From: Rhizodiscina lignyota
Taxonomy: Eukaryota
Assembly (NCBI GenBank): GCA_010015805.1
Contig: ML978126.1
Span: forward strand, 1,674,001-1,738,000
Direction of reading: 5' to 3'
Length of the DNA: 64,000 nt
In this document: positions 6,413 to 10,448 of the stretch, in pieces
Layout of the letters: each line of letters starts with the position of its first letter
Numbering within the stretch: the stretch's first letter is position 1
Notes under the pieces: generated by a model
Databases searched by the model: none
The model's input: the letters and a program-made list of their open reading frames with translations, nothing else
What the model was told of the DNA's origin: nothing
Made by a program: the position numbers and the translations under genes

Positions 6413-6604
6413 CTATCTCGCAGTGATTGGCCCCACCTTTGGGCTCCTCGCAGTGATTGGCCCTACCTTTGGGCTCCTCGCAGTGATTGGCCCCACCTTT
6501 GGGCTCCTCTTCCCGATATTCGCCGCATCCACTGGGCCAAGTTGGCAGTAGCCAACGGCCGCAAAAGCGGAAATGATGAACGCGAAAAGAACTGACGTCT
6601 TCAT
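6413..6604 (-). CDS. Secreted repeat precursor peptide (KEP / fungal RiPP precursor-like), 63 aa
   Basis: MKTSVLFAFIISAFAAVGYC (signal-peptide-like), QLGPVDAANIGKR (Kex2-type site), (SPKVGPITAR)x3, TAG. The differences between repeats (GTG/GTA, AGG/AGA) are synonymous in this frame. An ATAAATA element lies ~110 bp upstream. Adjacent to three HxxHC-type genes. Confidence 0.85.
   Translation of the reverse strand: MKTSVLFAFIISAFAAVGYCQLGPVDAANIGKRSPKVGPITARSPKVGPITARSPKVGPITAR
6416..6505 (-). repeat. 3 x 30-bp tandem repeat encoding SPKVGPITAR
   Basis: The plus-strand unit CTCGCAGTGATTGGCCC(C/T)ACCTTTGGGCTC is seen three times. Confidence 0.95.
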
Positions 6605-7214
6605 CTTGAGGACGTGGATGGGGACTGGAATCGAATGTTGGGTTATGATTTGAGGAATGGCTGAAAATGCTTCGACAGGCCTGGAAGACAAAGTTCAAAG
6701 GGTTCAAGCCCTGACTATTTATCGTGAAAGACCCGGGTCAGCTTACTTCTGGCTACGCAAGGTTTGAGCACTGTGTGCAGACGGTTGAATGTTGCAAGAT
6801 CACATCAGAAAACGTCCGTAACACTTGTAGGGAAGCGATCATCGCAGGATGAATCTCTACTCTGCTTTAGGAAGACAAGGGACATGCTTATTTATAGGTA
6901 ATTTTCAAGGATCTATCTACATTTGCGCAGTGACGGCGTAACGTCTGCAGGATTCCGAGATTCATCAGCGCTACGGTAGAAGTAGTAGGATTTTCCTACG
7001 CCCTTTCAAACCACTGCTGGCCCATGTAGAGATATCAGCGCTACAGAGAACATCGTGCGAGGCTACGGGAAGGAAGGCGGCAGATGCTCAAGCGAGCCAT
7101 AATTATTCGGATTGCCGATAGCTGCTACCTCTCAAGCCATTTCACCAACTCGCCTCGACATACGATTAGGCTTTCTCTCGAAATACTTACGAAGTAGTTT
7201 ATTCAACGTTATCA

Positions 7215-7967
7215 ATGGAGTACGTAACAAGCTTTCAACAAAGTTATGGCACTGAACTTTCTAGAAAAATTGAGCTCCCAACACGATCATCTCTCGAGTC
7301 GGGTCTGGACAATGGGGAAGATGAGACGGAGGCATTCATTGCACATCAACCCATCCGTGACGGCCGGAAAACCAAAATCCGCCATGTAATTGTCGTGGCA
7401 TGCCTATGTCTTGGGTTCGTGGTGGCTGGTATCCTTACTCTCTTGAAATTCCATCGTGCACCAGACGTGGACGATTCTGGAGCGGAGTGGATCGAATGTG
7501 GATCGACTCCTCAGGAAGCGAAAGCAAACAACTGCCACTTTGACCCCATGATGAGGGCATGGATCCCACACACATGTTTCTTTGAGGAACCACTCTCGGA
7601 ATACGACCCTTACCACGATCGGCCGTGGTATATGGACCAGAATGGAACGCAACGCGCAGACATCCCGACCATTCGCGAAATCATCCGCGGCGGCGTGCCC
7701 GAGACCGTGTATGCGCGCGACTACCACACCGACCACTGCCTGTACACATGGAGGAAGATGTCGATCGCGATCTCAAAGAAGAAGCCGTACGTCGACAGCC
7801 GCTCTTTCAGCGCGTGGCATTCGCGACATTGCGCGGATCAGATCTCCAACACGCTCCGCGACGTTTGGAACAATCCTGAAGTCGACCAGCTGCCTTTGAG
7901 GATGTCGGCGTCGACGCTTGATTACTTCTCGTGCATTCGTTTGCCGTGGCCTGAGGCAGAGGCATGA
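7215..7967 (+). CDS. HxxHC-motif membrane-anchored oxidase-like protein (UstYa/DUF3328-like), copy 1
   Basis: Single TM (HVIVVACLCLGFVVAGILTLL), CGSTPQEAKANNCHFDPMMRAWIP segment, two intact motifs HTDHC and HSRHC. Divergent from the precursor gene. Confidence 0.8.
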   Translation: MEYVTSFQQSYGTELSRKIELPTRSSLESGLDNGEDETEAFIAHQPIRDGRKTKIRHVIVVACLCLGFVVAGILTLLKFHRAPDVDDSGAEWIECGSTPQEAKANNCHFDPMMRAWIPHTCFFEEPLSEYDPYHDRPWYMDQNGTQRADIPTIREIIRGGVPETVYARDYHTDHCLYTWRKMSIAISKKKPYVDSRSFSAWHSRHCADQISNTLRDVWNNPEVDQLPLRMSASTLDYFSCIRLPWPEAEA

Positions 7968-8191
7968 CGGGATCTCACTATGTTTGCTTCCACTGCGGGT
8001 AGCTAGAAGGAAATCAGCAAGGGCAACTCGAATGTTTCAGCAATGCTCGTTTGGCTTCAGCGAGGGAGCACAAGCAGCTCCGTGGCTGCAAATCTAGGCG
8101 TTATGCCATTTGAATAGATTAAGTCTCGCCGTCATTGTATTGTTCTGATGGAAAAATAACTCTTCCATTTACTACCAATCAGTACAACCTG

Positions 8192-8914
8192 CTAGCCATG
8201 CAATCGGACCGTTGACTGTGTGGCCTTCGATGGCAACGTGATGACTGTTATGCAATGACGCACATGCCCCTCGCCATCAAAGACGGGATCGTAAAACTTT
8301 CCCCGCGCCTTCAGACGGTGCTCTTTGCGCCAGTTGAAGAGGCAATGCACCACATGCCACTCGCGGCTCATGAAGAAACCCCGCTCTGGGTCGTCGCCGT
8401 AGAGCGAGACTTGGTGCACCGAGAGCGGCTCTGTGAAGTTCCTGTCCGCAAAGTACTGCCACGTCCCGTCTGCGCCGTCTCCAGCGTTGTGAAACTCCTC
8501 GGTAAGTTCGTCGTCACGACAACGTTGAGGATACCAGGCGGTCGACAGCTCGTCATACTTGCAGCCACGACTGGACGCCTCGGCAACCGAGTCGCCGCAG
8601 TCGCATGGCGGCGTGGCGTACTTGATGTGGTAGTTACTGTCCCAGGTCGCGGCAAATTGTGTCTTTCCCACGCTTGTCCATCCGCGGATTCGAGAGATTA
8701 TACTGTAGGAGCCCCACAAGGTGAGAAGAATGAAGAAAACATCGATTAGAATCCAGCTTGATCCAGCGTTCAGGTGTCGCGGTATACTCGTTCGCAAGGT
8801 CGGGATGTAGCAAAGGCGCCTCCGCGAGTCTTTGCCGCTCTTCCACTCTTCAACAACTTCGTATTCAGGTCGTTCGGTAGCTTCGAAGCTACTTGCAAGG
8901 TCAATACCGGCCAT
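8192..8914 (-). CDS. HxxHC-motif membrane-anchored oxidase-like protein (UstYa/DUF3328-like), copy 2
   Basis: Probable start MAGIDL at 8914. TM WILIDVFFILLTLWG, CGDSVAEASSRGCKYDELSTAWYP, intact HVVHC and HVRHC. Confidence 0.8.
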   Translation of the reverse strand: MAGIDLASSFEATERPEYEVVEEWKSGKDSRRRLCYIPTLRTSIPRHLNAGSSWILIDVFFILLTLWGSYSIISRIRGWTSVGKTQFAATWDSNYHIKYATPPCDCGDSVAEASSRGCKYDELSTAWYPQRCRDDELTEEFHNAGDGADGTWQYFADRNFTEPLSVHQVSLYGDDPERGFFMSREWHVVHCLFNWRKEHRLKARGKFYDPVFDGEGHVRHCITVITLPSKATQSTVRLHG

Positions 8915-9678
8915 GAATAACGCGAATTCTGATGAAAGCTGCAACGCACCTATGTATCTCTGATCCCATCTCTTGGTGCAGTCGACATACATTGTACCAA
9001 TGTTCCACAGCAAGCATTCCTTGAACGACGATATTCGCGCAGATCTCCGTGCGACAGGTCTTGCCGGAATGAGTTATTCTCGTAAATATTCCGTTATCGA
9101 TGCTTATATGCACGAGTGCTGATTAATTATCTCGTCAGGGCCTGGCAATAGCATTAGCACCCGCCAGTTTGACCGCCTGGGCAGCCGATCATCTTATTTC
9201 GATGACATCTTGCTGTTTCACATGCAGCAACAGGCAAAGTCTGTACCATACTGCCGATCAATCTATCATAGAGCCCGATGACATGATCAGATCAGCACTG
9301 TCTGTTTCGGAGTAAGTGCTTATCATTGAAACAGCCCCAACATGACAGGAGAGTTGCATGAGCGGAGAGCTGGCACAGAAGAAGAAGAAAAGGGAACAAT
9401 GTAGTTTGGCTGGATTGAAGGATCAGTTAGAGAGGTTTTGTGCGTTGGGGAAGATAAAGATGATATCTTTCTAATTTAGTTGTATGCTCAATGGGATGAG
9501 GTGATTTGATCGCCTACATTGAGCCCCATTTAAGAGTTTGATAAAGCAAAGAGTACAAATAAAATGCTTACAAATAGTTATAACGGTTGCTCGAAGCACG
9601 TTCAATGCCCAGAACGTATCGTTGTTCGTCGCATTCTCATGCGGGGCGCACAATCGTCCTCCTCTTCTAGCAATCAAG

Positions 9679-10448
9679 ATGGCTGAAGAATCGAGCATAG
9701 TACATTCGTACTCCGAGTATGTAAGCTCCCTTGTTCAGTCGGGCACCGATAGAAGTTGACGATTCTCAGAGTCGCTATTGAGGCAATCGAGTCGCAGCTG
9801 CTGCCGCCTCATGGGGAAATTGGCAGTGCATCGCGAGATGAGGGCGACAATGCGAGATACAAATTCAAATGGAGCGCGCCAACGCACAAGGCACCCTCTT
9901 GCTGGATTCTGTTTGATGTGATGGTAATTCTCCTCGTAGCCTGCGGCATGTGGGATGTCTCGTCTCGAGCATTCGCTTTCCTGGCTGAAGAGAAGTTAAC
10001 CTACGCCGTCTCGTACAATGGAGCCTTCGAAGCGAAATATGAAAAGCAGCAACCATGCTACTGTGGAGCGACCAGTGCAGAGGCTATGAAGAATGGCTGT
10101 GAATTTGATGAGCTTTCTTTCAGTTGGCTGCCAGCTCTTTGTCGCGACGAGGAGCTGACCGCCGAATTCGCTCGGGTCGGGGAAGGCGGACAATGGCAGT
10201 ATTGGGCGGATGTAAATCGTAGCGAACCACTTTCGCTTGATCTCGTCCGACATGACCCTAAAGCTGTTTACATGAGCCCGGAGTGGCATGTCCAACAATG
10301 CTTCTTCCTCTGGCTGAAGGAGCATCGGATGAAGACGAGGGAGGGCAAATTTTACGATCCAGCCTTCGACACTGACGAGTACATCTTGTACTGCATGGAC
10401 TTGATTGGAGATGGAACGAAGGTCCCAATAATAGCCTCAGGAGACTAG
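9679..10448 (+). CDS. Paralog of copy 2 with degenerate HxxHC motifs (HVQQC, YILYC), copy 3
   Basis: Exon 1 9679-9716, then a GTATGT..TTGAC..CAG intron 9717-9769 that restores the frame. Aligns by eye to copy 2 along most of its length (CGATSAEAMKNGCEFDELSFSWLP, WQYWAD, KFYDP). Confidence 0.8.

Follow-up and report, generated by a model that had tools for sequence, protein, structure and literature searches.

The window analysed here is a stretch of 64,000 nucleotides from Rhizodiscina lignyota (GCA_010015805.1, contig ML978126.1, positions 1,674,001 to 1,738,000 of the forward strand). Positions 6413–10448 of this window hold four genes that may constitute a pathway for a peptide that is made on ribosomes and modified after translation (a RiPP), resembling the dikaritins. 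A preliminary description of this DNA placed two divergent gene pairs in these 4 kb, and the coordinates of the open reading frames (ORFs) bear this out: a candidate precursor gene on the minus strand is paired with Y1 on the plus strand, and Y2 on the minus strand with Y3 on the plus strand. Judging from the gene layout, the 610 bp between the precursor gene and Y1 (6605–7214) presumably act as a bidirectional promoter, and a second divergent intergenic region (8993–9678) lies between Y2 and Y3.

Gene layout and candidate precursor

The candidate precursor gene (6413–6604, minus strand) is an ORF of 63 amino acids and a stop codon. Its translation reads MKTSVLFAFIISAFAAVGYC-QLGPVDAANIGKR (also given as MKTSVLFAFIISAFAAVGYCQLGPVDAANIGKR), followed by SPKVGPITAR three times. 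The first 18 residues or so (6551–6604, minus strand) look like a signal peptide, as judged by a hydrophobicity heuristic and by inspection: the best mean Kyte-Doolittle value over 10 residues is 2.82, which passes a simple filter for signal-peptide-like hydrophobicity, and inspection points to a putative cleavage after AFA or AVG. A single dibasic KR, a Kex2-type site (residues 32–33; 6506–6511, minus strand), stands ahead of the first of the three identical units (6416–6505, minus strand), each of which starts with SP and ends with AR; the stop codon follows immediately after the third. Tandem Repeats Finder (TRF) reports the same element as a repeat at 6417–6509 with a period of 30, 3.1 copies and 96% match, the sole such repeat in 6413–10448. 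The precursor anatomy given in the preliminary description (signal peptide, KR, three identical cores) was thus found again, the signal peptide by the means just named. Of its boundaries, one is of Kex2 type, KR, and the three others are AR.

The exact 63-residue sequence has no entry in a collection of about 15 billion predicted proteins. Y1, Y2 and Y3 are present there as hypothetical proteins from NCBI, which leaves just the small gene of the four without annotation in it; surveys of annotated proteins would consequently miss the precursor. Its absence, together with the shortness of the ORF and the 96% identity of the repeats in DNA, which may thus be recent, would also fit a 63-codon chance ORF lying over a young 30-bp tandem repeat, in which case the locus would comprise three paralogous membrane proteins with no assigned role. 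We regard this as very unlikely. The signal-peptide-like start, the KR right before the repeats and the stop right after them speak against it, as does the fact that both of the 2 substitutions between the three units are synonymous. Moreover, the same scan of the other 59 kb of the window flagged one ORF, which is the antisense of a repeat-bearing ORF, and a homologous precursor at a metagenome locus (L004, see below) has a signal peptide, a KR and motifs in common with the present one, with unambiguous selection on its units.

The Y proteins and their family

Y1, designated A-type, is a 250-residue ORF (7215–7967, plus strand); the public model has 235 residues owing to a 45-nt in-frame intron near the start. 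It contains a transmembrane (TM) segment, a CG..EA..C.FD module, the sequon NGT and two HxxHC motifs, HTDHC (7725–7739) and HSRHC (7818–7832). Y2, of B-type, has 266 residues (8192–8992, minus strand), with a TM helix at residues 79–108 (8669–8758), the sequon NFT, and the motifs HVVHC (8342–8356) and HVRHC (8252–8266). In both proteins 25–26 residues lie between the two motifs, and the preliminary description of each as having one TM segment and two HxxHC motifs is confirmed. Y3 (9679–10448, plus strand) is a B-type paralog of Y2 with two exons (9679–9720 and 9798–10448) and an intron at 9721–9797; exon 1 and the intron, located upstream of the ORF 9921–10448, agree with the public model P0004. 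Its motifs are degenerate, HVQQC (10287–10301) and YILYC (10380–10394), and retain one of four histidines, which disagrees with the earlier count of three HxxHC proteins. Having arisen recently as a copy of Y2, Y3 now lacks three of the four motif histidines; it is probably non-catalytic and maybe a partner or scaffold.

All three are paralogs (E-values of 3e-44, 3e-74 and 2e-60 for Y1, Y2 and Y3, respectively, with the hidden Markov model (HMM) of the family). They have in common a charged N-terminal stretch, one hydrophobic segment, an N-x-S/T sequon in the same alignment column, and the module CGx4EAx4Cx[FY]D...W.P...C, which had been noticed before and is indeed present in each of them. 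A word-index search for homologs returned just 2 outside relatives for Y2, and 1 more using alignment; in an exhaustive profile search the number of cluster representatives was 2,114 at E≤1e-3, of which 1,418 remained at E≤1e-10 and 166 at E≤1e-30. Where relatives are named, they are listed as ‘hypothetical’ proteins, from Penicillium, Hypoxylon, Diaporthe, Apiospora and Hirsutella. Going by sequence, the Y proteins belong to a large unnamed family of Pezizomycotina. Six cysteines (including C132, C144, C158, C217 and C247), G133, W153, P155 and W221 are invariant in an alignment of 65 family sequences, at least 90% of which conserve the four motif histidines, and 145 of 156 relatives contain two or more HxxHC motifs. 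Histidine-less members occur in two separate clades, one with Y3 and one with P0117 and P0127 (FVAQC, LVVQC), which suggests recurrent pseudo-enzyme forms. We also observe Gln at the second histidine position in each clade (P0117, P0127, Y3).

The preliminary description assigned these proteins to UstYa/DUF3328 (PF11807). A Pfam search does not support this membership: PF11807, for which the gathering cut-off is 25 bits, gives no match to Y1, Y2 or Y3 at E≤1. Among relatives, 13 of 62 representatives match below the cut-off (E from 5e-5 to 0.04, with no score above 23.7 bits), as do 5 of 15 copies from related loci (13.6–17.1 bits), and nearly all of these matches fall on profile positions ~103–176, which hold the HxxHC motifs. 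Comparison by hhalign with shallow alignments of canonical UstYa sequences yields E-values of 0.0033 (67 columns) and 0.0018 (56 columns), with both HxxHC motifs in register. The nearest named clusters in the ESM Atlas are PF11807 clusters (0.84–0.85), which is a lead and nothing more. As far as these comparisons go, the Y family is separate from PF11807, with the motif-bearing helical segment and the membrane topology in common, and common descent of the two is plausible. No description of a double-HxxHC family outside PF11807 was found in the literature searched, InterPro and PANTHER not having been compared.

An AlphaFold2 (AF2) model of Y2, computed with the 65-sequence alignment, has a mean predicted local distance difference test (pLDDT) score of 79, with values above 90 in the lumenal domain and of about 95 in the TM helix (residues 79–108). 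The first HxxHC is placed at the start of a helix at 210–229 and the second in a helix at 241–252. The model is consistent with a single N-terminal TM helix and a C-terminal domain that we infer to be lumenal, an orientation that fits because the N-x-S/T sequon at one column and the six cysteines are conserved. Searches of the PDB yielded no solved relative: a sequence-profile search gave 0 matches at E≤1, Foldseek against the PDB none at E≤0.001, and a wide VIA-align search a best Z of 4.1, for the TM helix only. The AF2 model of canonical UstYa, built from 5 sequences, is too poor (pLDDT 37.6) for a comparison of its fold with that of the Y family. A described member of DUF3328 is CctR, a cyclochlorotine hydroxylase that works as an O2-dependent homodimer with binuclear copper; according to the available text, it has a disordered N-terminus and a TM helix, each HxxHC lies on a helix of its own, and their pairing binds two coppers in the dimer (PMC12435403).

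Homologous precursor and related loci

Nine closer family sequences were used for a scan of metagenomes, which gave 40 loci falling into 29 distinct groups and covering ~152 kb; L020 and L030 may, according to the tree, derive from one organism, giving 28 groups. The precursor of L004 (also seen as L029) lies at 1560–1925 and consists of a signal peptide, SKR and four units of TLVTKQLGPVAEEDIGPIDARSIQAR. It has QLGPV and [IV]GPI[DT]AR in common with the precursor in the window (pairwise BLASTP E 2e-6), and a motif scan of all loci found the two motifs together in L004 only. When the first 20 codons of each unit are compared among the four (120 pairwise codon comparisons), 71 differences are synonymous and 0 nonsynonymous; read in this way, the codon pattern means that the L004 peptide is certainly translated and constrained. 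The likeness between the two precursors reduces to a repeated [LIV]-G-P-[IV]. GPITA, GPIDA and QLGPV are absent from the searched supplement text, possibly incomplete, of PMC7329392 and PMC6339444.

Counting L004, secreted repeat-peptide genes (signal peptide plus repeat) were seen in 5/29 groups at 0.9–3.2 kb from a family member; the preliminary description had proposed to look for homologs beside similar short secreted repeat ORFs. L030 has a precursor at 37–1197, divergent from the family gene, with 13 units of REPYPDSWNKGGKSGRSVEVEVEA. In L019 a signal-peptide-like exon starting at 2893 (minus strand) belongs to a multi-exon gene with ~17 units of DPPWYRASTASTAEEVKRGE, and L022/L023 combines a signal-peptide exon with ~8 units of AE[AS]WE[HY]VKT (1664–2352, minus strand). 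For L033/L040 a provisional gene model (~8526–9123) contains three units of AF[FH]GQYINYxVPPSKRE. The repeat boundaries end in AR or GR in the window, L004, L023 and L030, and are KR in L019 and L040. Repeats in L013 and L031 and a 505-residue repeat ORF in L024 were rejected as precursors, either lacking a signal peptide or lying inside other proteins, and for the L019 repeat the minus strand was preferred to the plus-strand frame because of its KR sites and canonical short introns.

Canonical PF11807 genes adjoin a family member in 3/29 groups (L024, 67 bits; L032, 64 bits; L033/L040, 33 bits). Either a repeat-peptide gene or a canonical UstYa gene occurs in 7/29 groups, a rate that is a lower bound because 16/29 groups are less than 4 kb long. 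Kex2-processed repeat proteins (KEPs) make up 7,878 of the 14,491,621 annotated proteins of fungi, ascomycetes having 5.25 of them per strain, and for ~32% of all DUF3328 genes a KEP is found no more than 15 genes away, as far as the available text of PMC7329392 reports. With our own estimate of one gene per 3 kb, i.e. ~50 genes, the share of KEPs among annotated proteins predicts ~0.03 KEPs in ~152 kb, next to which our criteria are looser, as AR boundaries and spliced genes were accepted.

Phylogenetic analysis splits an A-type clade from the main B-type clade with support of 97/94. The A-type clade unites Y1 with L040:3841 (100/98), joined by L008, L004 and L002 (97/84), and Y2 and Y3 group with three other proteins (94/97), the branch of Y3 being the longer one (2.02 vs 1.19). 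For all 5/5 A-type genes seen, another member of the family lies no more than 2 kb away, and in both clades, A and B, the L004 gene and the L002 gene are sisters. This recurrent pairing suggests two sequential steps or a heterodimer.

Some of these loci show further features. In L040:3841-9123 (= L033) a single contig brings together two Y genes, one of A-type and a divergent one of a third type, with a canonical UstYa gene in three exons and the repeat precursor with FHGQYINY cores; this is the clearest case of the Y family inside a classical dikaritin-like cluster. The repeat gene of L019 (933–2893, minus strand), with its ~17 units and canonical short introns, runs stop-free into a C-terminal part containing HQYHC...HVIHC that has no Pfam match, and may thus combine a precursor and a double-HxxHC domain in one fused protein. 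In L001, an ORF with cytochrome b561 and CDH-cytochrome domains (2295–3755, minus strand) lies between Y-family genes at 1294–2019 (plus strand) and 4045–4641 (minus strand) and could provide lumenal copper oxidases with their own source of electrons. Ankyrin-repeat genes adjoin Y-family genes in three loci (L004:2144-3373, L002:822-1196, L011:3171-3905), and L004 holds PigL_N and HET-domain genes further on.

Elsewhere in the window, an ORF at 14144–14581 (plus strand) starts with MAKFWNKIKNFFKK and contains YEAHDS-type repeats with an 18-nt period (TRF score 96) and no Pfam match. Upstream of the locus, two ORFs without Pfam match (2180–2509 and 3825–4634, plus strand) have a segment ALDHxGxFLPxR...F.P.Y in common and look like paralogs. 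A 33-nt repeat of three SYGAAFDD units (43894–43992, minus strand) was discarded as a secreted precursor, being located inside an ORF with a PD-(D/E)XK nuclease domain (PDDEXK_12).

Proposed pathway and comparison with known systems

Based on this dataset, we consider it fairly probable that the locus is a compact dikaritin-like RiPP pathway. It follows the logic of dikaritin clusters, from which it departs in its enzyme family and its cut sites, and its core is new. In such a pathway the four genes would be co-expressed, and the signal peptide would take the 63-residue precursor into the endoplasmic reticulum. Kex2 prefers KR and RR, and less often KK, and STE13 removes XA and XP dipeptides (PMC6339444, available text). 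In the Golgi, Kex2 would cut after KR33, and Kex2 or another Arg-specific protease would cut after each TAR; by the same rules, an STE13-type activity would then take off Ser-Pro and the C-terminal Arg would be trimmed, leaving three copies of approximately KVGPITA. Y1 (A-type) and Y2 (B-type) would be type-II membrane proteins with their two HxxHC motifs on neighbouring lumenal helices. By analogy with CctR as described in the available text (PMC12435403), they may bind two copper ions and oxidise aliphatic C-H bonds of the peptide with O2 and an electron donor, the outcome being hydroxylation, cross-linking or halogenation. Y3 would serve as a non-catalytic partner.

Several observations weigh against this interpretation. 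None of 77 relatives (62 representatives and 15 locus copies) reaches the PF11807 cut-off, the best score being 23.7 bits; hhalign, run against 5 and 7 canonical UstYa sequences that form shallow alignments, returns probabilities of 9.6% and 14.6%; and two canonical UstYa proteins score 12.3 and 11.8 bits with the family HMM, where the best among 1,200 shuffles reaches 11.0 bits. In 22/29 groups no gene of either kind, repeat-peptide or UstYa, was seen, although 16 of the 29 are less than 4 kb long. Within the locus, words common to the two divergent intergenic regions do not exceed what shuffles give by chance, and the precursor ORF is short with just three repeats, between which 2 synonymous differences are too few alone to show selection. 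The boundaries between the repeats are AR and not the KR, RR or KK that define Kex2-processed precursors (PMC6339444), and Tyr, Trp, Phe and His are all missing from the core, while it is Tyr that the known macrocyclisations by UstYa use (PMC7329392). Finally, Pfam finds no tyrosinase, methyltransferase or peptidase domain among window ORFs of at least 130 residues, within ~10 kb of the locus or elsewhere, although split or short exons could be missed. The earlier statement that no tailoring genes are adjacent holds for these three classes; as for transporters, the nearest is a major facilitator superfamily (MFS) gene at ~20.1–22.0 kb, 9.7 kb from Y3.

With a profile-profile probability of 10–15%, so tiny a margin over shuffles, no matching solved structure, and an N-terminal Cys-rich module without counterpart in the canonical sequences aligned, the Y proteins might be no UstYa-related copper oxidases at all. 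Their HxxHC motifs would then be convergent or structural (zinc- or disulfide-binding), and the proteins would act as secretory chaperones, receptors or processing factors, with which the persistence of histidine-less members in two separate clades would agree. We hold this to be highly improbable. Four histidines and two cysteines are kept in 145/156 relatives, sub-threshold PF11807 matches recur on the same profile segment, and the predicted model places the motifs on paired helices in the manner described for CctR (PMC12435403, available text). Furthermore, family members adjoin canonical UstYa genes in 3 loci, and a cytochrome b561 electron carrier in L001.

A further possibility is that the precursor is an ordinary KEP, giving rise to unmodified linear signalling or pheromone-like peptides, and that the Y proteins act on other substrates, with an adjacency that is coincidental or only regulatory. 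According to the accessible text of PMC7329392, 78% of KEPs have no DUF3328 neighbour, and KEPs of the alpha-pheromone type are unmodified (PMC7329392, PMC6339444). The SP after each cut is a signature of STE13 that is tied mainly to alpha-type pheromones (PMC6339444), DUF3328 enzymes also serve non-ribosomal pathways such as that of cyclochlorotine (PMC12435403), the core lacks the Tyr used in known cyclisations, and 22/29 related loci showed no repeat or UstYa gene. On the other hand, SPKVGPITAR contains neither the Trp/Cys (‘PCW’) nor the PYGxPxG motifs by which alpha-type pheromones are recognised in the available text of PMC6339444. The precursor and Y1 are divergent neighbours at a distance of only 610 bp, a homologous precursor lies beside an A+B pair of the same family on the unrelated contig L004, and repeat genes occur near family members at ~100 times the published base rate (PMC7329392, available text). 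We judge an ordinary KEP to be unlikely.

The preferred interpretation remains that of a dikaritin-like RiPP pathway with a new core, as the preliminary description had it. It draws on the repeat precursor beside double-HxxHC proteins, on the related loci and on the selection seen in L004; what did not survive of the original form are the PF11807 membership, the HxxHC motifs of Y3 and a Kex2-type KR at three of the four boundaries. A wider reading, which we advance only tentatively and consider doubtful as a whole, has three parts. The Y family would be a second double-HxxHC copper oxidase family, invisible to Pfam, with at least 2,000 sequence clusters in Pezizomycotina. It would work in A/B-type pairs and explain part of the 78% of repeat precursors reported without a DUF3328 neighbour. 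The peptides of the window and L004 would represent a new class with aromatic-free [LIV]-G-P-[IV] cores, released at monobasic Ala-Arg sites and modified by Y enzymes alone, and therefore not by the Tyr-ether macrocyclisation of known dikaritins.

Mining for fungal RiPPs now keys on the Pfam model of DUF3328 and on annotated Kex2-type repeat proteins. The locus in the window escapes both filters, its enzymes scoring under the Pfam cut-off and its precursor being unannotated and having AR boundaries, yet it follows the logic of a dikaritin cluster. Should the Y proteins truly be oxidases, thousands of loci would become accessible to mining with a profile of their family, and some repeat precursors without a known modifying enzyme could be explained. 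With four genes in 4 kb, the locus is an unusually easy test case for heterologous expression, and the A+B pairing and the histidine-less paralog bear on how dimeric copper enzymes assemble.

Dikaritin clusters have been defined by five components (Ding et al.) and later around DUF3328, both definitions being quoted in the available text of PMC12048977. Set beside them, the locus has a precursor with a leader and a repeated core, the signal peptide being judged by heuristic; as to a DUF3328 protein, Y1 and Y2 have the ‘two HxxHC motifs’ quoted as a criterion there and give no match to the Pfam model. Tyrosinase and methyltransferase were not found among the window ORFs covered, nor was a peptidase domain, and the MFS gene is the closest thing to the transporter. 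The UstYa/UstYb (DUF3328) proteins of the ustiloxin, phomopsin and asperipin-2a pathways resemble the Y proteins in being fungal and in having one N-terminal TM segment and two HxxHC motifs ~25–32 residues apart near the C-terminus. The UstYa-type proteins often occur as at least two paralogs beside a secreted repeat precursor, as the Y proteins do here. In contrast to UstYa, the Y family has a conserved module of its own, CxCGx4EAx4CxYDx5WxPxxC, ahead of the motifs, and unlike UstYa pathways the locus lacks a tyrosinase and a methyltransferase, its core is devoid of Tyr, and its boundaries are AR instead of KR.

CctR and the AF2 model of Y2 are alike in the disordered N-terminus, the TM helix, the helical lumenal domain and the placement of each HxxHC on its own helix. 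They differ in that CctR is a PF11807 member acting on a non-ribosomal peptide (PMC12435403, available text), whereas the Y proteins bind metal, dimerise and act as enzymes only putatively. KEPs, as far as described in the available text (PMC6339444), and the precursor in the window have in common a signal peptide, short units repeated identically in tandem, a KR in front of the first of them and X-Pro after each presumed cut; the precursor differs from them in having AR rather than KR, RR or KK between the units, in its only three units and in being unannotated.

The locus contains no copper amine oxidase, unlike the pathway of victorin. Victorin is a dikaritin with GLKLAF cores, made with the DUF3328 protein VicYb, and its pathway uses a copper amine oxidase. 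Its core includes a Phe and is otherwise mostly aliphatic with a Lys, so that DUF3328-type chemistry need not depend on Tyr.

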